DNA of 58,092 bases, the filler included, from Sphacelaria rigidula (Eukaryota), in the NCBI GenBank assembly GCA_964200075.2. It is 6 parts of 6 records of this genome, joined end to end, with 100 filler letters (N's around TTAATTAATTAA, not from the genome) between each part and the next. Parts side by side here need not be neighbours in the genome. Positions count along the whole stretch, not along the records: positions 9,701 to 19,300 come from CAXNAA020008124.1; 5 more parts are not named here. The stretch is one strand, 5' to 3'. Within the stretch, counting starts at the first letter, position 1. Every line of letters begins with the position of its first letter. The position numbers were made by a program, and so were the translations under genes. Below are positions 1 to 36,153 of the stretch, piece by piece. The notes under the pieces are model-generated. The model saw only the letters and a program-made list of their open reading frames with translations. It was not told the DNA's origin and searched no databases.

Positions 1-3000
1 AATCCCCAAGCGCGAAGCGCCGTGGTGTGTTCGGCAAGTCGCATGAAGGGTGAGCTGCATCCTGCCAAGATTGTTCTGCCGAAAGCCTGCTCATTATCTT
101 GCACTTGGATGACAGCCTCGAATGAGTCGCTTCATTATATGGTATCACCACTTCCAGAGACAGCCACGGCTTATACTCTGGCTCATGGGTGTCTCACCAT
201 AACATACCAGGCTCGAGGGGGAGGGGGGAAGAGGGGGTAGGTAATACAAGAGGGTTATAAAACAAGCCAAGATAAAATGAAGGTAGCATCAGTAACGACG
301 ACGGGGCGCACGGATGGGGGAGCGACAATCCAGCGCATGTATGAAGCACAATTATGCATCAATTAATGTGGTGGTAGGAGTTATTTTGAATCAATTGGCA
401 GTGCGATTGCGAGTGCTGCAGATGATTCGACATACTGCTATGCGCACAGTGTAAGCGCCGAGCGTATACTGGCATGGTGCCACTCCGTGAACGCGTTAGG
501 AATGCCTGCATCGCGTTCATCTTTAGGATTTGCAATTTTCTTGGCTCACACTGAACCCTCGAACTTCTTCGGGACGAATGCGTGGTTTGGTGTAAAGGTG
601 TAAAGGGATCAACCCATCTCTCCCCCGGTACATGACTTACATTCTTACATTCGGGTATGGCAAATTGATTGGATCATGACCCTCTGTAACGCCCACATCG
701 TGTCGACTCTTTCCAAATTGAACATTTTCCTCCTCACATCATGTTCATGTCCAAGTTTTCGACGACGAAAATCAGATACTTTCTGAAAAAAAAAAAAAAC
801 GTATCTTCTGGTGAATTGTGATTGTGATGTAGGCCAACTCACAAAGTAATGTGTTCGAAGTGCCATGCATAGAGTACAGCAGCGATGCATTCCAGATCAA
901 GAAGCGATACCTCAATACCGCGATGCCCCCTGTACAGGTTGAGCTACAATAGTCGAGCATGCTGACCCCACGACGGGAAGTGAAGCACATGAACAAAAAG
1001 ACGACACGCGCACACAATCGAAGCGCCGAGAAAAAAGCGAAAACGAACTCGATACCGCAGACCAGCCTTCTCTCCAGTTCCTCCCGCTCTTCCCGTTCCT
1101 GTCTTTGCCAATCGAAGCACGAAGAACAGTTTCATCGTAATTGGACTCATGCAAGGGGATGCAAAGCCATCACGAAAAACCTTCCGGCAATGCAACATTC
1201 GACTTTCAAACATTCCACGGTTAGGACGAATCAAATCGTGATTTGACTCATGTTCATTATTTCAACGAATTAATCATACGATTGGCATATCATTTGTAAT
1301 TTATACAGGTTTTGAGCTCTTGAGTCGTGCAGTACACCGTCAACGGTACCTGTTTCCTACCTTCCGTGCATACGGGGTAAATCGTGGGCACATATTCATC
1401 CCCTGTGAAAAAACGTGGAATGAATCGATTGTACATGCCACCCACACTTACCATGAGGCGTGAATGGCATGTACATCTTATGCCATGCGTGATTCGTGCG
1501 GGACGAAGAGTCGGCACATGGTTGAATCCTCTCATTTCATGGGCCTTGAATCAGGCTTACTTTTCTCCCATCTGTAATGCGGCTGAGATGACTGCACTGC
1601 CCATGTTATCCATCGTCGGGTTCATGCGGAACCAACAGTCGGCATATGGTTGAATCCTGTTATTTCATGGGGAGTCAACTCGTATGAACTCTGACTCGTC
1701 CTAACCGCAAACCCTTCAAGCTGGTTCTCCCACTCACTTTTCCGACTCCGATGACGAGGACGCTTGTAACGGCTCCCTAGCGGCATTCCTACTGTCCATC
1801 CCGTTGGCACCGTTCATTCTATTCATCGCACTCCGTTCATCGGACCTGTGCACGACCCCCATGAGCCATGGGCCATGAGGCATAAGGACAAACCACCGAT
1901 ACAACTAGAAAGGCGATAGCATGACGACGGTACGCACTTTTCTGATGCACGTTTGGAGCCATGCCTATGCCAACTATCGCTACTATCGTAGCTGATGCCA
2001 TTTCTGGGTTCGAAGCTTGCGTGGTGCTATGCTCTACTGTACCCTCTACTGTTTTCTACCTTGTCTTACTGCGTTATCGATCAGCATCGTATGCGTATTT
2101 TCTTCCGTCTGTTATGCCCTTCAAGTGATTTCGTCCCGCTCCTTCAGAACTCGTGGGTGAGAGTTTATGTTAAACTAGTGCGGCCCTGAGGTATTTGAGT
2201 CGTGTGGTCATTAGATATCTTAGTCGCAACCTGCTTCCACTGCCTTATTTTGCCTTGTTTTGTTCTTTTACGCACCGTCTTCTTATCTTGACCTCGCCTA
2301 AAGCGCTGTGAAGTAAATGTCTTTTATTATGGGACTGGTACTGTCGTGCTACTACTGTCCTAGATGTCACATTTTAGCCTAGCGTTTGATTCGTTTTCAG
2401 GGTTTCCTCTTCTTTTCCCCTTCTTCGTTTTTCTCCTTTCTGGAGTTTCCTTCATTAATAGCGAGTGTTCCCGACCATTCACCTTGGGTAAGTCTATCTT
2501 CCATCTGATGATCACCGCTGGATTCTCAGCGACAGTGGTTCATTTTCATGTTCTCACGACAATCAATCGGTCAACAGATGTTGGCGGCAAATGGATGTGC
2601 GCCTGATCACATGAGGGTGTCTGTACTCGATGTTGGACATACCCTCCACTAATACGCGAACGTTGGCACCTGCAATCGTTCTGACGGTTACTGGCGAACA
2701 GGCAAGAAATCTATGAGGGTTTAAATCAAAGTGCTCCATACTATCGATTCCAAGCAGGGATGGCTTGGGATCTTCCTACGGCTCAAGAGAGTGAAGGGAG
2801 CTGGGTTGCGATTCAGGCTCGCGGGCCAATCGCAGGATATAATTTCCTTTCAGTTTGGATCTCAGATCAAATTTTGATTTACGAGAACCATTATTCCGAT
2901 TAGAATGCGAAAATCGAACATCGGAAGAAATGCGGTGTGGTGATTGACCCGCTGTCGTGAACCGCAACTGAATTGATTGAGATTTTCCGAGCCTTCTAAA

Positions 3001-9983: not shown

Positions 9984-10200
9984 TGTATTGCGTGAGAGGA
10001 CCGCGTGCTTAGAGGACCGCATCGGAATTGCAACATCCCCATTGCTGGGGTCAGGGTCAGGGTTAGGGTTAGTGTTGGGGTTAGGGTCAGGGGCATGGTA
10101 CCTCCAGGGACTGACCCGATTGGTTTTGAAAAACGTCGATCTTGAGGTATTTGGGACCACGGCGCGGTCCTCCAAGCACGCGGTCCTCTCACGCATTACA
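9984..10200. mobile_element. 217-bp MITE with 37-bp TIRs and internal telomere-like (TTAGGG/TCAGGG) repeats
   Basis: tgtattgcgtgagaggaccgcgtgcttagaggaccgc (9984-10020) versus the reverse complement of 10164-10200: 2 mismatches. Internal ggggtcagggtcagggttagggttagtgttggggttagggtcagggg. Confidence 0.8.
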
Positions 10201-10898
10201 GGGTGACAAACAGAGACGCCGTCCTTTCAGTCAGGAGTCTGTTGACACGAATAACGACGTGTCTTGTGGCGTTCCAGTCTAGGGAGGAATGATGTTCACG
10301 TGTCCAGTTTTTGAAGGACGTGACGAGGGGTGTCAGGTGTAACTCGTCGCGCGGCGAAACACTGAAATCCGTTGTTTTGAAATAGGACGGGTACTCGATC
10401 TTGGAATCGATCGGGACCTCAGCTCAAAAGTTACCTGGCCCGAGAGGTAAGATCGCGACGCGCCTGAGCGGTACTGGCGTCATTCGTCAACCCGTCCGGG
10501 TCATGGAAGCATCGAAGTCGCTGGCGTAGGATGTGACCCCCACCCGCCGTGTAGGTGAAGGTTTTGCAATGAGAGATGGTCGACACACACCCGTATTGAC
10601 GAGGGCGTTGAGCCTATAATGCGTGTTGGGACCGCGCGCTTTCTTCAGCGCATCGTGGACGATTTTTTACACCTCTCGGTCTGGTCAATACCTGCGATGA
10701 CCGCGCTCATGACTTCCACCCCAACAATAACCCTTTTCAGGTGAAGGAAGCATGCGGTCATGCCACACACCACAGAGTCACAGAGCCTCTGCGTTGTGCC
10801 TGGCGAGCACAGAGATGACCGCCGTTTTTCACTTTCCTTTCGGTATCGATTGACCCACAGAGAGCGATCGTCTCGTGGGAGTTCACCGGGTGGACAGG

Positions 10899-13800
10899 AT
10901 GTTGTCGACGAAGAGGCTGTGCGGATGCGCGGCCGGGATCATCTTCTGCTTGGCTCTTTTCGCACGTTCAGCTATAGCAGGTGAGTCGCGCACTTTTTGT
11001 CGCGAATTTGACGGCATTTTGTCGACTGTCGATGTAGGCGTGAGCAAGGTGCTGGATCGCGAACGGCACACATGAGTGTCGGATGTTGTCCAAACCCTGG
11101 ACGTCGATCCCGGCGCTTGGTTAGAGTCCACCTTTGCGGCGCTGACTCCGCTGACGCCTCCGGCGTGCTCTTACGGCGTTTTGTGTTCCCGGCGCATGCA
11201 TGGCCGGGCGATTTTCAGCGCCCGAACCCGATTCATGTTCTTGATCCCACCACCGCCAGGACCAACGGCCGAGGCGGTGGCACTGCGGGAAGAAGGGGGA
11301 CCGACGGCCCTGGCTCCGGTGTCTTTTTCTGGAGGCTCCTCAACACGAGCATCAGGGCAAGGTGAGCCTCTAGGGAGGGTGAGGAGGTTTGGTTGAAAAC
11401 TCTGGTCGTTGCCGTGTCGTGGACGAGTATCGATGGCGCGATCATGCACCTGGCGTGGTCGAGGAGCTGCTCGACGTGGGTGCCGCCGCTGACGAGTGCC
11501 GCCGGTATCGTGTCCCTAGTCGAGGTCACTCCGCTCCGCCGTCGTTGTTGCATCGCACCTCCAGGTGAACAGGATGCCAGAATCCTCCGAAGGAAACGGC
11601 GCAGGAGGGGCAGAGGCAGGCGGAGAAGAAGAAGGGGTAGGAGGGGGCGGAGGAGACGTCGACGTGGGCGCAGAGGGCGAAGATTCCGTGGTGAGTGCAC
11701 CGCCGACCGGGCTAATATCCCGTGCGCCACGTGTTGAGCGAGGCTGATCAACCTGTCACAGCACCTGTAAACGAGGCGAATGACCCGTCAAAATACAACT
11801 CACTATCGTGGCCCGTGTAAAAAATACACACTGCTCAACTGTAAGTAGACACGAACAATCGGTTCAACTTGTGAACCCAGCTCTAACAAGAGAGCTCGCG
11901 GAGGCTGCACAGTGTTGGTTGAACACTTGTTTGTGCGAAAGAGAGGATGCTTGGAATTGCCGCTTTATCTGGGCGACACTTGAATCAAACACATGTAACA
12001 ATCGTTGGTTCCTCATGAAGGCAGAAACAGACTACAAGCTGATGAGCTTGCCTGAGGTGGGTCGCTTTGGAGATTAAATAGCGTGGGGCTATTTCACACT
12101 CATCAGTAAAACTAGAAAACTGTCCATCCAAACTGTCCATACTTGTGGACTCTCAGTACTCCACCCTTCAATACTCGGGCAATATGCTGACTCTCTGTAT
12201 ACGAGCTATACAGTACATGAGCTATTCATTATTCTACGATGAAAATCCCACACACTTCACTACCTCAGTTATTCGGACGATCTTCATTCTAACGATGAGT
12301 CGTTCCTGGTTTTCCCGCTAATCTCGAGTATGTAAATTCGCCGAACTGTCATTTACTGATCTTCCAACACCGTGCCGTAGCCAGCGCTGAAGCTAGCAGT
12401 GCGATTCGTCATCGTGTACCGCGCGTGTAGAGACGAGACGAGCGTCCCACACGTTCCGAAGATGCCGCCGAAGAAAAACGGTAGGTGGACGAGGTTGTAC
12501 CATATTTGTCGCAGTGGTGCGACACACAAAAACCTCTCGAGATTCATGCCTTGACCCGCGTTCGTTGCCCCCACGTCGACCCCGCGCCATGTTGCCGATG
12601 CGTGTGCGGGAACTCTGTCCGCGTCCCTCGCAGGAAGGATCAAGTTGCCTCCGACACCAACGGCGGCCCCGACCGCCACGCCGGCGCCGACAGCCACGCC
12701 GGCGCCGACAGCGACGCCGGCGCCGATTGCGACAACGCAGCCAACGCCAGCCCCGTCGGAGGAAGGCTTCATCATCCTTCCGATCCCTGGTGAGAGAGGA
12801 GTGAAGAATCAATCGTTTGTCCCACGGTGATGCCACGTGTCGCGACGAGTAGCGTGTAATTTGCGGGTTGCGGGAAAATATGATGCCACGCCACCGTCGA
12901 TCGGTGACTCTGCCTCGGCGACTCCTCCCGCAAGATGCTCCCGTGCCCAGTGACCCCGTTCGGCCCGGTCGCTCAGGGGTGTAGTCGTCCAGCCATCGCC
13001 CAGTCGGGGTGTACCGCGTGCTTGTTTTACACGACTGACATGGTGGAAATCCCCTTGTTCTGGGCCGACCGTGTCGTCATTGTCGCTTTCCATTCGCACG
13101 GTAGGAATCCCCGGGCTCGCGATCGGCGGCGGAATTATCCAAATAGCAGATCTGGTGGTCGGCCAGACCATTGTTGTCCTCCTGGTGGACGCGACTGGAG
13201 TCCCGGTTGGGCAGGTCACCGTCGTGGTGATTTTGAATCGAAGGCTGACGGAAACGACCGAAGGAGAGCAAGCCGCCATCTCAGCGGGGAGCGAGGCGTC
13301 CCGCGGTCTTCAGCTCCGGGGGGTGATCAATGTGAGTAACGTGGTGCCCACCGCTGGCTCACCATACGCCAACCATACGCCACGAGTATCTCGATGTCGT
13401 GTTCTGTCCCCCAGGAGCATGTCCTGTGGCCCTCGAGCATGGGTCGAGGCCATGTTGGCGGGAAGGCGTGTACAGGGTCTGATATTTGTGTCGCCGATAT
13501 CGTTGTCGTCGTGCACGTTTGCGCGTAGCATGGGCCGCGGTGCCACCTCTTCTCGTGGAAACCTTGATGGGGAGGACCCAGTACGGTCGCGAGCGTGAAA
13601 AGCAGGGCACAGGTCGGGTCGTCGTCGCTCCCGCTCATCGGTGTCAGCTATTGGGGACAGTAGCAGCCATCGCACTGCCTCTCTGATGGACACTGTTTTG
13701 GACTAGCCGAGCACGCCCGACGAAGCAGTGGGGAGACGATGATACCAACCCCGACTTTTACCGCCTCGCTCACGACTTGCCGTCGACCCGAATGCCGCTG

Positions 13801-14590
13801 TTGTTTTGTCCACGTATCGCAGGTGAGGATAGACATCGTGAGCGTGACGATCTACCGCCGGGGTATGCAGGTGGCCGAATCGAACCCCTTCTTGGTCGCG
13901 ACCGTCAATGGCCAGGTCGTCCTTCGCACCCCGCCCGTCTTTGGCACCTTCACTCCTGTGTGGACCCCGTCGCAGACATTCCCCGTCTTCTGCAGGAGCG
14001 CGACGCGCATCTGTGAGGTACAGCTGCTCCTGTTTAACGCGAACCCTCTTCCGACGCCGGCGCCAACCGCGGTGCCGAGTCCGACGCCAATGCCGTCGCC
14101 AGCCAACACTCCCGGGAATGGCGGTAACGGGCCCGGAAATGGCGGTAACGGGCCCGGAAACGGCGGTAACGGGCCCGGAAATGGCGGTAACGGGCCCGGA
14201 AATGGCGGTAACGGGCCCGGGAATGGCGGTAACGGGCCTGGAAACGGCGGTGACGCACCGGGGAATAGCGGTGACGCACCCGGGAATAGCGGTGACGCAC
14301 CCGGGAACAGCGGTGACGCACCCGGGAACAGCGGTGACGCACCCGGGAATAGCGGTGACGCGCCCGGGAATAGCGGTGACGCACCTGGGAACAGCGGTGA
14401 CGCACCCGGGAATAGCGGTGACGCACCCGGGAATAGCGGTGACGCACCCGGGAATAGCGGTGACGCACCCGGGAATAGCGGTGACGCACCCGGGAATAGC
14501 GGTGACGCACCTGGGAATAGCGGTGACGCACCCGGGAATAGCGGTAACACACCCGGGAATAGCGGTAACACACCCGGGAATGGCGCTTAA
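10899..14590 (+). CDS. Six-exon gene for a secreted low-complexity protein (about 486 aa): signal peptide, RXL sites, poly-Arg/Gly tract, PT-rich linkers, C2-like beta domain, Gly/Asn/Asp heptad repeats
   Basis: Exons 10899-10980, 11260-11361, 11565-11690, 12634-12789, 13105-13331, 13823-14590. All introns are GTGAG...AG, the phases (1,1,1,1,0) match, and the 1461-nt frame is open. N-terminus MLSTKRLCGCAAGIIFCLALFARSAIA is signal-peptide-like; ends in TAA at 14588-14590. Confidence 0.8.
14111..14587 (+). repeat. Coding 21-bp tandem array: 6x PGNGGNG, 1x PGNGGDA, 13x PGNSGDA, 2x PGNSGNT, then PGNGA
   Basis: cccgggaatagcggtgacgca and cccggaaatggcggtaacggg units; variation within each block is mostly synonymous in this frame. 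Confidence 0.95.
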
Positions 14591-17500
14591 CGGGCCGTAA
14601 ACGGTCTCGAATATCCGCCCACTCCACTTCGAGCAGTAGTACCGTAGTAGGTCTCCTCGCGAAGGTCCTGTTCGGCAAGCGCCAACGGTTTGATTTTCAG
14701 GAGCCTCCGCTGTGTCTTTCCTTGATTCCTGGTGCTGATGGGCGATGGTGGGTACTTGTTCCTGACCGGTGGTCCTGGGTAACTGCACATGTGACGAGAG
14801 ATGAAAATTCGGTGCTGCATGGTGGCCCCAAAAAACCGCAGCGATTTTATCAGGAGTACGTGTAGTGATGGTGCCTGCCTGCGTTTCGGTAGAGTCCTTT
14901 CCGAATGGGTATACGTGTGAAGAGAGGTGAGGATGCGTTGACTGGACGGATGTTGGTCGAAAATGTAGATGGTGGCTTGTATAGCTTAAGATACTGACGG
15001 GTGTTGATCGATAATGTAGATGGTAGCTTGTGTAGCGCAAGATCTGTGGTTGCCGTCACAGAGCAACTTGTGAGATTATAACTGACGAAATGTGTTCAAT
15101 GGGGCATTCACTCCCCCCAAACCCCGCCGCAGTAGCCCCCAGGTGTGCCAGATGATGCGTTGTATGGCCCAAGACGTGGGGATTGTCGTTGGATGATCAT
15201 TGGCGGTACTGTAGCAGAACATACAAGGAAGTCCCGCCCCCCCCCCCCCTTCGGACAAAATTGTCTCCTACGGTCGTGCCGGATGATACGTGGGACCCGA
15301 CTTTGATCATGGCAGTTGTCGTCATTGAACAACTCGTACGGTAGAAACTAATCGGATGCAGTCGACAAGCCTCCGTACCCTTTTCGTCTCGTGGCTGAAT
15401 GTTGCCGCCGGGGCCAGTCGTCGTGGAAACAGTGACGGTTCCACGTGGGTGTGCCATACTCGTCCACCTTGAGGGGACATGAGCTGGAGCGTGTCTGTTC
15501 AACGACGTGAACACGCGATTCATTGCGCTATAGATTTGTGTTACACGACAGTGTCCGAATTGGCTGCTACGTGGCACACGACCCGTGGTATACTTGGCCG
15601 AACTCACAGCTCGCACGCATCGGTTCTTTCATGCCTCGTCAAAACGGGTTCCATCTTTTTGATTATTGACGAGTGGGGTCCGAGCTCGCGTCCTCTTGAT
15701 GTTCCACAGCGAACATTGACTTGGACACCCGTCCGATTGATGAATCTGGAAGAAGAAAGAAGTCGAGTGTCGGTTTCATCAAGTTTTCACAAGGTGCAAG
15801 GACGGGAGGCCCTTCAATTTTTCTGGAGGAACAAACCAGGTCCACAGCAAAAAAAAAAGAGAGAAAGGCAACTGGAACATGAAAGGAAGCGAGAAAGGAC
15901 CCTTCACGTCAAAAACACGAAAAAAACAGCTCATGAAACATGAAAAAAGTCAAAAACATAGGACTGATACGAGGAAAAGGATTAGGTCCTACGAAATCAA
16001 AAGAAACCAGAACGGAATAGGGAAGAACAAATGGAATCTAGACTAGAAATGACCGGACAGAAAGAAAAAAGGACGAGGTCCTGAGGAGGAAATCCTGCTC
16101 CGAAGAAACGAGGCAAACAAATCGCGAAGGCGCCCCCCTCCCCCCGAAAAAAATCAAGATCAAACGTTGCAAGGGTCGGACCAATAATGATTCGTCAGGA
16201 AATTACTTGGTTTTAGTATGATTGGTCGACTCGTGACGAATCAATCCCTAGGCTTGATTTCAGCGTTGCAACCCAGGTACACGAAGCCCAGACCCGTGGA
16301 ATGGCGCAAAAGTTGCGTGGATAGTCCTTGGACCAGCGATCAACATGTTTCTCCCTTTTGGGCAATCAGGTCGAAGACATCGTGAACTTGGTGATTTTGA
16401 GTCGTGATGATTTGTCCTAACCGTGAAACGTTGTGAGGTGAGAAAATAAAGCCGGGAACGATACGTAGTAGATAACCGAGCTCATGATCAACGGAAAAAC
16501 ACGAGTGAAAACAGACCCGAAGAGAGTAGAAAAAAGTACGTACTGAACAGCTGTTCCAATAAAAAGAAAGAAACAGTACTGAACTACTGCTCATTACTAT
16601 ATATAAAAATAAAATACGAATACAAAGCGCTGCTCGCTCCTGTAATGCACCACAAAACAGTCTCCAGCTTTCCTTCGTACAACGTTCATGCTTTTCTCTG
16701 CTTCGCTCGCTCAATGCCATCGACTCGCTCGTCTGGGTCATTTGCTGGTGCTCTTCACTTATTGAAGACTCTCCGCAGTCTTCGTCAAATCACTTCTTTC
16801 GAAACGTTCACCGTCATCGAACACTTGTCGTCTATGCTAAGCGTCGTCAATATCCTCTCCGAATGCAAAACCTACGAGGAAACAAGTTCATAACATCACT
16901 GCGCGACAGAGGGACATGGCGTGCTCGGGCGGGATAGCATACTTGATGCCTTGGCTGGGTGGTGCAGATGCCAAAGGGCGTAGAACCCGTCCACACGGGA
17001 AGCATCAGGCTTTCCAGGACTCTGCTTCCTGGTAGCTTTTGACATTGCTCCATCCTGGGCCTTTGCTCGCTATTTCCAACCATTTTTTTTTGTTTTTTTT
17101 AGATTTGGACTCGCGACGGTGTTTCAGGGTGAGGAGGTGGGGTGTGGGGTTTTCAAAGGTTGGCGTCGCCCCGAGGTCTGGTGTTCAACCAAACTAGGCG
17201 GACCCGTCAGCGGTTGAATATCTCAGGTGGGGCAGGTACCGGTGTGTAGTTCGACCTATGGCGGACTATCTTGCGCGTACGTATTTTGTGTCCTCGCATC
17301 ACCACCTCCAGTCCGCATGCCGTCATGAGTCCTTGCCAACTTTCCATGTACCGTGTACTAGTGCTGCAATTTCCTGCCGTGGCCATCCCGACATTGATAT
17401 CTCACCTTCCGGATCCACCACCAGTTTTACCTCGCATAGGTACTATTCGCGCTGTTCTTCGAGAGGGCCCAGTCCTGCACTCGGTTCTGCTTCGCGAAGG

Positions 17501-31994: not shown

Positions 31995-34100
31995 CAGCAA
32001 TAACTCCGCCTCCCCCGCCCGGTACAGTCAAGTTAAACATCTCCCCAACGCGTGCAGCGTATATGATACCTGCACATCCTCCATCCCTAACCTCGCCACT
32101 TAGATCACCGGAGCTCGTAGAAAGACGTACCTCCGCCCCTCCCGCCCAGTTGAATTGAGTCAATCATCTTGCAGCGTGAAGGTTACCTTCACATCCTCCA
32201 TCCCTGACCTCGCCTGCTTGATCACCAGAGCTCGCAACGACAACGCCTCCGCTTCCTCCGCCGGGTTCAGTTACGCCAGACATAGGCAACGCGTGCAGCG
32301 GTTGTGCTACCTGCACATCCTCCATCCCCAACCTCGCCTCCTTGATCGCCGCAACTCGCTGGAACAGCGCGTCCGCCTCCCCTGTCCGGCCCAGTCGAGT
32401 CGAACATCTCGCCAAGTCATGTAGCGTATGTGCTACCCGCATATCGTCCGTCCCTAACCTGACCTCCTCAATCGCCAGAGCTCGCCGGAACAACGCCTCC
32501 GCCTCTCCCGCCCTGTCCAGTCGAGTCAAACATCTCGCCAACGCGTGCAGAGTGTAAGCTACTCGCACATGCTCCGTCCCCAACCTCGCCTCCTCGATCG
32601 CCAGAGCTCGCCGGAACAACACCTCTGCCTCCCCCGCCCGGTACAGTTGAGACAAACATCTGCCCAACGCGTGCAGCGTATTTGCTACCTGCACATGCTC
32701 CGTCCCCAACCTCGCTTCCTCGATCGCCAGAGCTCGCCGGAACAGCACCTCTGCCTCCTCCACCCGGTACAGTTGAGACAAACATCTGCCCAACGCGTGC
32801 AGCGTATTTGCTACCTGCACATGCTCCGTTCCCAACCTCGCCTCTGCAATCACCAGTGCTCGTCGCAACAACGACTCCGCCTCCCCCACGCGGGCAAGCT
32901 GAGTCAAACATCTCGCCAACGTGTGCAGCATAAAAGCTACCTGCACATTCTCCGTCCCCAACCTTGCCTCAATTATGGCCAAAGCTTGCCGAAGCAACAA
33001 CTCCGCCTCCGTCAGGCGGTCGAGTTGGCTCAAGCATTTGGCCAACGCGTGCAGCGTATGCGCTACCTGCACATCCTCCGTCCCCAACTTCGCCTTCTCG
33101 ATCGCCAGAGCTCGCCGAAACAACTCTTCCGCCTCCACTGCCCGGTCCAGGTGAGTCAAACATGTGGCCAACGCGTGTAGCGTGTGGCCTACCCGCAAGA
33201 CCTCCGTCCCCAACCTCGCCTCCTTGATCGCCAGAGCTCGCCGGAACAGTGCCCCCGCCTCCCCTACCCGGTCCAGGTGAGTCAAACATCTGCCCAACGC
33301 GTGCAGCGTATATGCTACCTGCGCATCTTCCGTACCCAACCTCGCTTCCTGGACGGCCAGAGCTCGCCGGAACAAAGCCTCCGCCTCCCCCGCCCGGTCA
33401 AGTTGAGTCAAACATGTTGCCAACTCGTAGAGCGTATGTGCTAACTTCACATCTTCCGTCCCCAACCTCGCCTCCTCGATCGCCAGAGCTCGCCGGAACA
33501 TCGCCTCCGCCTCCCCCGCCCGGTCCAATTGAGTCAAGCATCTGCCCAACTCGTGCAGCGTATAAGCTACCTCCGCCTCCCATGTACCCAACCTCGCCTC
33601 CTCGATAGCCAGAGCTCGCCGGAACAATGCCTCCGCCTCCCCTGCCCGTTCGAGTTGACTCAAACATCTGCCCAACGCGTGCAGCGTATGCGCCACCTCC
33701 ACATCCTCCGTTCCCAATCTCGCCTCCTTGATCGCAAGGGCTCGCCGGAACAGCAACTCCGCTTCCCCCGCCCGGTCGAGCTGAGTACAACATCCGGCTA
33801 ATGCGTGCAGCGTATGCGCTACCTCCACATCCTCCGTTCCCAATCTTGCCTCCTTGATCGCCAGAGCTCGTCGGAACTGCGCCCCCGCCTCCCCCGCCCG
33901 GCCCAGTTGAGTCAAATATCCTGCCAACGCGTGCAGCGCATAAGCCACCTCCACATCCTCCGTACCGAGCCTTGTCTCCTTGATCGCCAGGGATCGCCGG
34001 AAGCACACCTCTGCCTCCCCCGCCGGGTGAAGTTGAGCCAAGCATTCGGCTAAAGCGTTCAGCACTACTGCCACAGGTATCGCACTAGTCCCTAGCCTAG
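31995..34100 (-). repeat. 126-bp tandem TPR-coding array; the last ~3 units (31995-32290) are frameshifted or contain stops
   Basis: Unit EARLGTEDVQVAHTLHALGRCLTQLDRAGEAEALFRRALAI(K/E). The DNA periodicity continues past the ORF stop (e.g. GCG AGG TTA GGG ATG GAG GAT GTG CAG GTA TCA TAT ACG CTG CAC GCG TTG GGG AGA TGT TTA ACT TGA). Confidence 0.92.
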
Positions 34101-36075
34101 TCTCTGTGCTCTCCAGTGCCTGGCGAAGCAAGATTTCTGCTTCTTGAAATCGCCCAGATTCCGTTAGACATTCGGCTAGCATAAACCGCGCATCCGCAAT
34201 CTTTGCGGAGTCAGCATCGAGGTTCGCTTCCTCGGCTGCCTTAAGCGCCCGCCTAAACCACAGCTCAGCTTCGTCCACGCGCTCCAACGTATAGCAACAC
34301 GAACCAATCATGTGAAGAGATTGCACATACTCAGAAGTAGCAGCGGCTCGGCCATCAGACCTCAACCGCTCTTTTGCGACGTCTACCAACGGTTCCATCG
34401 AGCCCCGAAGACGCCGACTCTCCTCTTGATCTCGGTCTCTCACCGATACCTCACAGTGCCAGAGTGCAGTGAGAGAAGCATGCGGATTTGCCACCGGGTT
34501 GCCCTCGCATCGTTCCCATACTCCCCGCATCACGGCCTCAGCACCATGAAAATCACGGTTAATATTATACAGCTCTGCCGTAGCCTCTGCCGAGCAGAAA
34601 TACAACGGATCCGAGGAGTCTAGCGCAGACAAAGAAAAATCGTACGGGTGCAACTCACGTAACCCTTTCCCCCCTACGAGCTCAACCGCCTGCCACAGAC
34701 CCAGAAGGCCGTACACGTCCACTGACCGCACCACCTCCAAAGTGGATAAATGCGCCTGCCATCTTTTCACTACTTCTCGGCGAATATCCTCACGAGCATC
34801 CAGAAGAGTCCTCCTAGCGAATTCCGAACGAGCGTCGTGCATGCGGAACAGACCAGGCCCTGCCGCGGTGATGATCGCCCATCGCTCCAGAGCTGCCACC
34901 ACCTGCCCAGCTTGCTCCAGATCGTGCTCCGAGTGCTCGTGGCCGAATAACAACACGCAAGCCTCGTACACCTCAAAAGCGTGACCGCCTGGCATTACCG
35001 CCAAGGCAAGGTAAAGCCACCGGCTCTGCGAATCCTCAGCCCCAAGGCACTCGAAGCCAGCTCGGAGAATCGCGACACGTTTGTTCGCGCTGGGATCTCT
35101 ATCTGCGCTTACATTATCATCATCACCGAAGTGTTCTTCCTGAACCTTGTCCAAATGACGCCGGATGACGGCAATCGCCTTGGACCATGAGCCTCCATCG
35201 CTCCTCCCGTTTACCACTGTCCACCTTGCCACGGACTCCACATACATGGGCATGTAGTCGCACAGCTCAAACAACTCGTTTACAGGTTCTGGCAAACGAG
35301 CACCCTCGGGAAGCTCGGCGGCACTAGCCACGAGCGCCTCCGCCTCCTCCCGTCTCAACCGCTCCATCACGATCGCCTTGCCCCCGGCGTTATCTACCAG
35401 AACCTGATCTCGAGTCGTCAGCAGCACCCGCATGCCGGTCTTTCGCAGCTCCTGCACGACTTCCGGCTCCCACACGTCGTTCGCTACAAGCAGGCACTGC
35501 AGACCTTGACGCTTCAAGCACGTAAGCATAGCCTCTTGGACATACGCTGTGCCGTTCTTCGGTTCTATCGGCGACTGCCCGGGAGGATAGCCCCTGCTGT
35601 CCAGCACGTCCTCGTACACCCTCTGCGCAAGGCTCTGCATTAATCCTGGCAGTCGCTCGGCTGCATCTCTACCCACGTGGAGCCACACCACGCCGTCTGA
35701 GAACAGGGCTCGCACTCGACTCAGCCGCTCGAAAGCCTGCTGACGTGTCTCCCCGTCCAGGGGTCGGACCACACCTATCCCATGTCTAGCCACCATGGCC
35801 GCAGCGGTGGTCTTCCCTGACCCACTACCACCCACTAGCCCCACCATCCACGGGCTGCCCTCAGCGACAAAGTGATTGTGTACGTCGTCCATCACCGCGT
35901 TGCGCACGACATGCCAGCCCTTGGCTTTTGGAGCACCCGCTGGCACTGCAAAAAGCTTTGGTGACGACGGAGAAGTACGGGCAAGGAGAGTCTTCATGTC
36001 CTCCCGCGTTTCCCGAGTGTCTATCGCCATGCGATGTTGGTCCTGAACCACATGGTTCTGGACAGAACAAAACAA
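32164..36075 (-). CDS. NB-ARC-TPR (STAND NTPase, NLR-like) protein; large terminal exon, 5' exons uncertain
   Basis: Walker A GLVGGSGSGKTT, Walker B CLLVANDVWE, RNBS-B VLLTTR, MHD motif FRMHD, then about 2 divergent and about 15 near-identical 42-aa TPRs. Splice acceptor ttgttttgttctgtccag|AAC puts the exon start at 36057. Confidence 0.93.
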   Translation of the reverse strand: MFCSVQNHVVQDQHRMAIDTRETREDMKTLLARTSPSSPKLFAVPAGAPKAKGWHVVRNAVMDDVHNHFVAEGSPWMVGLVGGSGSGKTTAAAMVARHGIGVVRPLDGETRQQAFERLSRVRALFSDGVVWLHVGRDAAERLPGLMQSLAQRVYEDVLDSRGYPPGQSPIEPKNGTAYVQEAMLTCLKRQGLQCLLVANDVWEPEVVQELRKTGMRVLLTTRDQVLVDNAGGKAIVMERLRREEAEALVASAAELPEGARLPEPVNELFELCDYMPMYVESVARWTVVNGRSDGGSWSKAIAVIRRHLDKVQEEHFGDDDNVSADRDPSANKRVAILRAGFECLGAEDSQSRWLYLALAVMPGGHAFEVYEACVLLFGHEHSEHDLEQAGQVVAALERWAIITAAGPGLFRMHDARSEFARRTLLDAREDIRREVVKRWQAHLSTLEVVRSVDVYGLLGLWQAVELVGGKGLRELHPYDFSLSALDSSDPLYFCSAEATAELYNINRDFHGAEAVMRGVWERCEGNPVANPHASLTALWHCEVSVRDRDQEESRRLRGSMEPLVDVAKERLRSDGRAAATSEYVQSLHMIGSCCYTLERVDEAELWFRRALKAAEEANLDADSAKIADARFMLAECLTESGRFQEAEILLRQALESTETRLGTSAIPVAVVLNALAECLAQLHPAGEAEVCFRRSLAIKETRLGTEDVEVAYALHALAGYLTQLGRAGEAGAQFRRALAIKEARLGTEDVEVAHTLHALAGCCTQLDRAGEAELLFRRALAIKEARLGTEDVEVAHTLHALGRCLSQLERAGEAEALFRRALAIEEARLGTWEAEVAYTLHELGRCLTQLDRAGEAEAMFRRALAIEEARLGTEDVKLAHTLYELATCLTQLDRAGEAEALFRRALAVQEARLGTEDAQVAYTLHALGRCLTHLDRVGEAGALFRRALAIKEARLGTEVLRVGHTLHALATCLTHLDRAVEAEELFRRALAIEKAKLGTEDVQVAHTLHALAKCLSQLDRLTEAELLLRQALAIIEARLGTENVQVAFMLHTLARCLTQLARVGEAESLLRRALVIAEARLGTEHVQVANTLHALGRCLSQLYRVEEAEVLFRRALAIEEARLGTEHVQVANTLHALGRCLSQLYRAGEAEVLFRRALAIEEARLGTEHVRVAYTLHALARCLTRLDRAGEAEALFRRALAIEEVRLGTDDMRVAHTLHDLARCSTRLGRTGEADALFQRVAAIKEARLGMEDVQVAQPLHALPMSGVTEPGGGSGGVVVASSGDQAGEVRDGGCEGNLHAAR

Positions 36076-36153
36076 ATGGGGATATCGGGGAGGAACTGTT
36101 ACAAAAAAGGTGGGTCAACGCTAGGAGTTAAACTTCACCTTTCGGAAACTCAC

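Follow-up and report, generated by a model that had tools for sequence, protein, structure and literature searches.

The window analyzed here, that is, the whole 58,092-nucleotide stretch of Sphacelaria rigidula DNA taken from assembly GCA_964200075.2, holds between positions 10899 and 14590, in the part derived from record CAXNAA020008124.1, a spliced gene of six exons, the product of which contains a central domain that is likely to be related to the C2 family (PF00168). When the exons were joined in a script, they gave one long open reading frame (ORF) of 486 residues, from ATG 10899 to TAA 14588, with an in-frame stop at 10851, 16 codons 5' of the ATG, and a reading frame set by the splice phases from exon 1 through exon 6. 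In what follows, X1-X3 and X10 are public sequencing runs and P0004 is a filed partial protein of the same species; the alignments are A4 (8 sequences, native order), A5 (4 rows), A6 (3 rows of segment B), and A7 (the whole of P0004), alignments A1 to A3 having been left unused. The features of the gene are as follows.

10899..10980, plus strand: exon 1, coding part, with the ATG and a signal-peptide-like segment (residues 1-28); joint 10980/11260 in X1-X3
11260..11361, plus strand: exon 2, short Ala/Gly/Ser-rich region (residues 29-62); GT..AG joints on both sides, in X1-X3 only
11565..11690, plus strand: exon 3, RIL (residues 67-69), then the poly-Arg tract (residues 70-105); joint 11690/12634 in X1-X3
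12634..12789, plus strand: exon 4, encoding Pro/Thr stalk 1 plus a brief hydrophobic lead-in, by translation; P0004 starts in stalk 1, in the same frame
13105-13331, plus strand: exon 5; GT..AG joints in X1-X3
13119..13235, plus strand: segment A (in exon 5), three predicted strands corresponding to C2 type-II strands 6-8 (hhalign template columns 85-136; AlphaFold strands)
13236..13322, plus strand: conserved 29-residue linker with RRL (13239-13247) and RGL (13302-13310), from the alignment of relatives
13823 to ~15600, plus strand: exon 6, by RNA-like cover
13823..14050, plus strand: segment B (first 76 codons of exon 6), five predicted strands corresponding to C2 type-II strands 1-5, with its end at the position of loop 3 (Pfam, phmmer, hhalign)
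13991-13993 and 14012-14014, plus strand: conserved Cys codons in segment B (alignment A6)
14051..14110, plus strand: Pro/Thr stalk 2 (translation)
14111..14585, plus strand: 21-bp tandem array encoding Gly/Asn/Pro heptads (Tandem Repeats Finder; translation)
14588..14590, plus strand: stop codon TAA, with the 3' untranslated region beyond it (RNA-like cover to ~15600)

Organization of the gene and of its product

The six-exon spliced gene of S. rigidula is real. Contigs of the four runs were placed on window positions 10000-16000, those of X1-X3 being RNA-like and those of X10 DNA-like; the RNA kind of X1-X3 is a guess, backed by their exon-only cover and by the splice joints. In particular, five GT..AG joints (10980/11260, 11361/11565, 11690/12634, 12789/13105, and 13331/13823) are present in the contigs of X1-X3 and absent from X10, and the word depth of X1-X3 is very high over the exons and 0-4 in the intron bins, where that of X10 is ~200. 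By these joints, the exon that starts at 13823 is indeed the sixth, as it had been labeled in a preliminary description of this DNA. Furthermore, a word-index search with exon 6 retrieved P0004, filed at NCBI as "unnamed protein product, partial" from the brown alga Sphacelaria rigidula, which is 96% identical and has the same exon 4/5 and 5/6 joins as the window gene; this protein belongs to a separate contig and shares 91-97% identity with the window. No second copy of the gene was found within the window by tblastn of the family against it.

The product is made up of a signal-peptide-like start, an Ala/Gly/Ser region running to RIL, a poly-Arg tract, a Pro/Thr stalk, segment A, a connector, segment B, a second stalk, and the heptads, in this order. 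The N terminus presents basic residues at positions 5-6 and a hydrophobic core at positions 7-21, with a mean Kyte-Doolittle value of 2.54, and small residues stand at -3 and -1 before Gly28. In plastid-targeted proteins of ochrophytes, an aromatic residue typically follows the signal cleavage site; since the residue after the likely cleavage site is here a Gly, secretion is likelier than the plastid route, and the 486-residue protein is probably secreted, to judge from its sequence. The poly-Arg tract comprises 27 Arg among its 36 residues, the last of which, with part of the preceding one, is encoded at the start of exon 4. Stalk 1 holds an 18-bp repeat (4.2 copies, 12651-12726), and the 21-bp array counts 22.6 copies (score 635, 93% matches), with two types of heptad, of which the second is the more numerous and contains Asp. 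Beyond residue 17 there are just two Cys, 288 and 295, both in segment B and both invariant in the three rows of A6. Neither the signal-peptide-like segment nor this conserved Cys pair figured in the preliminary description, and the same is true of the correspondence, discussed below, between the native order of the domain and a window across two tandem C2 domains.

Some further observations concern transcript variants and the repeats. ATG 12462 (MPPKKNG) was considered as a start and rejected, since in the dominant spliced form it is part of intron 3. Low-depth X1 contigs run unbroken over 12396-12638, from intron 3 into exon 4, and seven codons after ATG 12462 there is a GT donor whose use would preserve the Pro/Thr frame; this region may represent a minor alternative to exon 1, one that encodes neither the signal peptide nor the poly-Arg arm, or simply unspliced RNA or DNA. 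Exons 3 (11565-11690) and 4 (12634-12789) are open in a second frame too, acidic and Gly-rich from ATG 11574 in exon 3 and Arg-rich in exon 4, which meets a stop 13 codons into exon 5 and is probably a by-product of purine- and GC-rich repeats. Within 14094-14531, contigs of X1-X3 and X10 skip 184, 310, or more bases of the 21-bp array, and the joint carries 13 other letters; these skips look like copy-number alleles or a paralogue, not like splicing, and the repeat numbers of P0004 also differ from those of the window array.

Relationship of segment B to C2 domains

Both peptides quoted in the preliminary description were located in the window DNA by direct translation. Exon 5 (13105/13107-13331) encodes the AIGGGIIQIADL...VVVIL segment and the RRL...RGLQ linker, which joins the two halves as had been proposed, while exon 6 encodes, from 13823, VRIDIVSVTI...SNPFLVATVNG...PVW...EVQLLLFN, followed by a Pro/Thr stretch. 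The likeness of exon 6 to the N-terminal part of C2, noticed by eye at that stage, proved to be above chance by Pfam, phmmer, and hhalign, although the Pfam match lies below the cut-off. In particular, the Pfam C2 model aligned with segment B over profile positions 20-62 of 104 (E 0.0049, 17.5 bits), and the 163-residue domain of P0004 (residues 21-183) scored 13.8 bits against the same model.

When this 163-residue domain was used as the phmmer query in an exhaustive search of 1.84 billion representatives, 11 matches were obtained: P0004 itself, five short exon-fragment ORFs, four large multi-C2 proteins, and one protocadherin, the last of which is taken as spurious. Three of the short ORFs span segment A with the connector and two span segment B; the five are 31-48% identical, with both halves and the exon borders conserved. 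The multi-C2 proteins (E 2.4e-9, 1.6e-6, 2.3e-5, and 1.7e-4) match the segment-B part of the query, one of them extending back into the connector. These four (P0008, P0009, P0012, and P0013), which include a synaptotagmin-5 from Diplonema, a tricalbin-2 from a fungus, and two proteins without names, carry 5 to 10 Pfam C2 stretches each, and 28 C2 domains taken from them were used to build a canonical profile. Against this profile, that of segment B aligned in hhalign at 96.7% (E 4.4e-10) over 72 columns, template 9-80 of 147. Moreover, the ten best language-model neighbors with a family in the ESM Atlas are all C2 (score 0.81), which we treat as a lead only. Taken at the level of sequence, segment B is a credible homologue of strands 1-5 of a type-II C2 domain; its identification with type-I strands 1-5 was rejected, because the Pfam C2 model starts at type-I strand 2.

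The preliminary description had also remarked on Asn at the usual places of the calcium-binding Asp. The profile alignment confirmed the replacement at three alignable positions in the window (SNPF versus SDPY, and N.N versus D.D), which we take to be calcium ligands. The Asn of loop 1 is invariant in the three rows of A6 and in P0004, the first Asn of loop 3 is invariant in the three rows of A6 but is a Thr in P0004, and the second position of loop 3 varies among the relatives (Asn, Ala, or Glu). Since the acidic ligands are replaced, any binding by the sandwich would be calcium independent.

Segment A and the order of the two halves

Segment A alone aligned with the 28-domain profile at template columns 85-136 (score 17.8, pairwise P 0.005), which is exactly the part of C2 that segment B is without, and none of 150 shuffles of segment A reached this score (maximum 14.1). 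The resemblance of exon 5 to the missing C-terminal part of C2, as first proposed, is thus weak, yet above every control and located at the expected columns. With the halves swapped, hhalign returned the full-length C2 alignment that had been anticipated for this concatenation: 114 columns, template 9-136 of 147, score 65.6 (compared with 54.8 for exon 6 alone), 97.3%, E 2.3e-11. In the native order, only segment B aligned with a single C2 domain (55.8). The score of 65.6 was reached by none of 150 column shuffles of segment A (mean 54.9, standard deviation 0.9, maximum 60.0) and by none of 26 cadherin decoys taken as 45-residue windows (maximum 57.9), and all five other orders of the three strand blocks of segment A scored lower (54.9-60.7). 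The alignment breaks just after the position of the D.D motif, which places the chain break at loop 3, and translation confirmed that Pro/Thr stretches flank both of the new termini.

It follows from these alignments that the strand order fits neither type I nor type II C2 domains, and we consider it likely that the central domain, of ~150 residues, is a C2-like eight-stranded sandwich, circularly permuted and opened at loop 3. This part of the preliminary interpretation is supported by the profile alignments and by the predicted co-folding of the halves. As to the alignments themselves, the input set of A4 was adjusted until the segment-B fragments aligned correctly.

A side observation was made in this context: MAFFT repeatedly placed the first half of the segment-B fragments (P0006 and P0011) onto segment A, by way of a common V-G-Q turn, which may hint at an internal likeness between hairpins or may be an artefact of fragments.

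Correspondence with tandem C2 arrays

Twenty natural windows were taken from the tandem-C2 proteins, each spanning the stretch between the loops 3 of two consecutive C2 domains. Against these, the native-order profile gave an alignment of 132 columns, reaching from 7 to 152 in the query (of 152) and from 6 to 146 in the template (of 147), at 97.1%, E 6.1e-11, and a score of 66.1, compared with 55.2 for segment B alone and 57.8 for the swapped order; none of 100 shuffles of segment A reached 66.1 (maximum 57.9). In this alignment the connector corresponds in position to the inter-C2 linker of the tandem arrays. When the native-order profile was run with HMMER on the four tandem-C2 proteins, nearly all matches were to segment B, and one weak colinear pair occurred across a C2 junction of P0013 (independent E-values 0.14 and 0.018).

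Because the native order is colinear with the end of one C2 domain, the inter-domain linker, and the start of the next, we infer an origin from a tandem array, and duplication and truncation of such an array is probably the most economical route by which the domain arose, as far as the sequences indicate. A loop-3-to-loop-3 window would have been excised from a row of tandem C2 domains, giving three C2-ending strands (exon 5), then a connector of ~29 residues that would be the former inter-domain linker, then five C2-starting strands (exon 6). The new chain ends would lie at the former calcium-binding loop 3, and both Pro/Thr stalks would leave the sandwich from that face. No donor tandem-C2 gene was identified among the sequences searched.

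Predicted fold

Structure prediction was carried out with AlphaFold on P0004, not on the window's own spliced protein. Run 1 (residues 21-183, with A4) gave a mean predicted local distance difference test score (pLDDT) of 65.0 and a predicted template modeling score of 0.64, and run 2 was made on the whole of P0004 with A7. Both models present the same eight strands, of which segment A contributes three (model residues 17-24, 33-39, and 45-55 in run 1) and segment B five. In run 1, the pLDDT is 73-83 over model residues 11-50 and 62 over 51-60, and it falls below 50 in the connector (model residues 57-83); run 2 adds a short helix where the connector ends, and its stalks and repeats are disordered. 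The two halves are thus predicted to co-fold into one eight-stranded sandwich, as had been expected of a permuted domain, with middling confidence in both runs. When they were instead given as separate chains (residues 1-46 of A5 versus A6, with the alignments unused), the complex score was 0.23, below the mark of 0.34, and is counted neither for nor against co-folding.

The 50 rows listed by the structure search with the 163-residue model comprise 17 C2 domains, ten MATH/TRAF/Siah domains, and three ToxA-like effectors. Among the C2 rows, 13 of 17 begin at model residues 41-45, immediately ahead of the final strand of segment A, run through segment B, and end at loop 3 of the chain, as in synaptotagmin-1 140..234, and the second model agrees. 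The last strand of a type-II C2 domain occupies the place of type-I strand 1, and a start of type-I C2 rows at the last strand of segment A with a stop at loop 3 is what a permuted C2 domain predicts.

Connector and R-x-L motifs

All four rows of A5, as well as P0004, keep the RRL motif, which one of the rows has displaced by a single column, and the second R-x-L is invariant in the same sequences, while the residues between the motifs vary. The 486-residue ORF has three R-x-L motifs in total, all at module borders: RIL 67-69 stands directly before the poly-Arg tract, and RRL 201-203 and RGL 222-224 bracket the connector. According to passages of PMC5525289, diatom wall proteins typically have a signal peptide and, after it, ~30 residues that end in RXL, and removal of the RXL-ending region by a protease of unknown identity was seen in diatoms. 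The S. rigidula protein has a layout of this type, with a hydrophobic N terminus, recognized by eye, followed by a short region that ends in RIL.

Alternative explanations

Several points weigh against a permuted C2 domain and the account built on it. Segment B did not reach the Pfam gathering score of 22 bits (best 17.5), the Pfam scan of the 8 sequences of A4 listed C2 for four of them with none above the cut-off, and a sequence search of the PDB with the A4 profile gave no match at E up to 10. Segment A alone has an HH probability of 6.9%, which is not significant by that measure. The profiles were built from some four sequences for each half, every one an exon fragment, and each of the five homologue fragments carries one half, the order of the halves being read from the window gene and P0004. 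The five models of AlphaFold run 1 range in pLDDT from 35 to 65, and the mean of run 2 is 54.5. Folds were compared only by strand content and by the rows of the structure searches, and the putative signal peptide was called by eye and from hydrophobicity. Finally, in structure both models match best the MATH domain of kinesin-3 KLP-6 (PDB 7wrg), with Z 9.6 and 9.3, and not a C2 domain, the C2 rows reaching only Z 4.3-5.7, a range that the tool calls common. Among the rows that Foldseek showed for the PDB there was no C2, and only KLP-6 stood at E < 0.001.

This match is the main ground for an alternative that we regard as improbable, namely a MATH/TRAF-like or ToxA-like sandwich in ordinary order, with exon 6 resembling C2 by convergence or only locally. 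KLP-6 tops both searches well above the following rows (Z 6.3 and 6.6), its alignment of 130 and 131 residues takes in nearly the whole model, and the ten MATH/TRAF/Siah rows and three ToxA-like effectors also cover nearly all of it. However, Pfam, searched at E up to 10, gave no MATH or other such family for the 8 sequences or for the exon translations; all the evidence from sequence (Pfam, phmmer, hhalign, the tandem windows, and the ESM Atlas lead) favors C2; and the MATH/TRAF/Siah rows other than KLP-6 (Z 4.6-6.0, root mean square deviation 4-6 Å) are no better than the C2 rows. In terms of sheet order, the MATH topology is a circular shift of that of C2, one strand further on, and a MATH domain would have seven of its eight strands in the same sequence order as this domain, which would account for the long MATH alignments without kinship. 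Somewhat less probable still is that the halves are remnants of two adjacent C2 domains that do not close within one chain, either as unfolded relics or as a domain-swapped polymer, in which segment A of one chain would pair with segment B of the next. The native order does span exactly two neighboring C2 domains and the models are of middling confidence, but the halves and exon borders are conserved in five fragments at 31-48% identity, the gene is spliced and well represented in the RNA-like runs, and the 29-residue connector permits the intrachain closure that both AlphaFold runs predict. That misassembly or a wrong gene model produced the whole arrangement can be virtually dismissed: no point in its support was found, and against it stand five joints, all GT..AG, in three runs, the separately filed P0004 with the same exon 4/5 and 5/6 joins, and homologue fragments that start or stop at the same exon borders.

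A further possibility supplements the permuted C2 domain and does not replace it. By analogy with diatoms, an RXL protease of ochrophytes might cut the connector at its two R-x-L motifs and the N-terminal region at RIL, which would yield a two-chain clasp; we hold such cleavage to be rather unlikely, and hold the processed form, a noncovalent sandwich joining the poly-Arg arm to the Gly/Asn arm, to be just as unlikely. The idea is favored by the position of each of the three motifs at a module border, by the conservation of both connector motifs among variable residues in A5 and P0004, and by the removal of RXL regions described in the passages of PMC5525289 cited above. On the other hand, the precedent comes from diatoms and not from brown algae; the conservation of the connector could equally be structural, as run 2 puts the short helix over the second motif; and both conserved Cys are in segment B, so that no disulfide would hold two chains together.

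Comparison with known proteins and possible function

The domain has in common with C2 its predicted sandwich of eight strands, the succession of SDPY-like, T, PVW, and hydrophobic-D.D-like motifs along segment B, and the LG...I.L and G.V.V motifs in segment A. It differs in that its chain ends lie in loop 3, five strands from the type-II start, which corresponds to neither known topology, in the loss of the alignable calcium ligands, in the signal-peptide-like start and the conserved Cys pair, and in the Pfam score below the cut-off. C2 domains are, to our knowledge, almost all cytosolic. The family is a textbook case of natural circular permutation: types I and II, the only topologies described, are one strand apart, as stated in passages of PMC8507603 and PMC2395249. 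In the literature searched, outside which most subscription journals fall, a permuted C2 domain beyond types I and II had zero phrase occurrences, and a search combining C2, circular permutation, and MATH gave mentions of types I and II only.

The tandem-C2 proteins P0008, P0009, P0012, and P0013 are the best canonical relatives by sequence, being colinear from loop 3 to loop 3 with the connector included, and differ in having 5-10 complete C2 domains and in belonging to distant lineages. The MATH domain of KLP-6 and other MATH/TRAF-C domains, in contrast, match best by predicted structure but carry no sequence signal, and their similarity may reflect strand order only; moreover, the tail domains of kinesins are cytosolic. 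The matched region, 7wrg chain B 626-839, fits the models far better than the classical MATH/TRAF domains do (Z 4.6-6.0), and its identity as the MATH domain of KLP-6 is given in passages of PMC9314371. ToxA-like fungal effectors (ToxA, Avr2, and SIX8) are small secreted sandwiches, with Z 5.7-6.6, in the common range, and no sequence signal. Diatom RXL wall proteins, namely silaffins and silicanin-1, resemble the S. rigidula protein in their signal peptide, short R-x-L-ended region, and cationic or low-complexity part (passages of PMC5525289); their hosts are ochrophytes like the brown algae, and they show no sequence similarity to it. As far as we know, brown algae make no silica.

A word-index protein search with the 163-residue domain found none at near lengths and P0004 alone at longer lengths, and a metagenome scan with A6 gave 158 pattern matches, 0 of them confirmed. 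The family is tiny, since the 1.84 billion representatives yielded a single named protein and five unnamed fragments of exons, and it is probably a lineage-restricted invention.

It is possible to hypothesize, from the signal-peptide-like start, the Cys pair, the Pro/Thr stalks, and the cationic arm, together with the polyanionic nature of the brown-algal matrix (alginates and sulphated fucans, according to the abstract of 10.1101/2024.04.23.590721), that the product is a secreted cell-wall or matrix protein. This suggestion is tentative and doubtful, and it is the weakest step of the account. The sandwich would then be a compact hub braced by a putative Cys288-Cys295 disulfide, and the poly-Arg arm may bind polyanionic wall polymers such as alginate and sulphated fucans. 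The boldest version, to which we give little credence, would combine a third natural C2 topology, derived in one step from a tandem array, with an extracellular location and with cutting at R-x-L into a clasp of 3+5 strands that ties the poly-Arg tract to the Asp-bearing Gly/Asn arm in the wall. If it were true, the RXL processing of diatom silica proteins would be an older secretory mechanism common to ochrophytes.

Opening at loop 3 would place both chain ends on the calcium- and membrane-binding face, with canonical action excluded, and the colinearity with tandem C2 windows would make this domain a clear natural example of permutation by duplication and truncation. It would also be one of few extracellular C2-like modules, in a lineage whose wall proteins are hardly known, and the three R-x-L motifs at module borders would offer a direct route to asking whether brown algae have RXL processing of the diatom type.

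Other observations

Sequencing runs X5-X9, from two other organisms, contain 10-20% of the sampled words of 11000-15000 and might contain relatives of the gene. Just 5' of it, at 10000-10200, the word depth of X10 is ~420,000, compared with ~200 elsewhere, and X1-X3 show many loose ends and an opposite-strand joint there, the region being a high-copy repeat. Elsewhere in the window, 32164-36114 on the minus strand is an open frame of 1316 codons; it encodes an NB-ARC domain (E 1.5e-13) together with numerous TPR repeats (TPR_NPHP3 E 4e-116). NB-ARC/TPR genes are a family expanded in brown algae.

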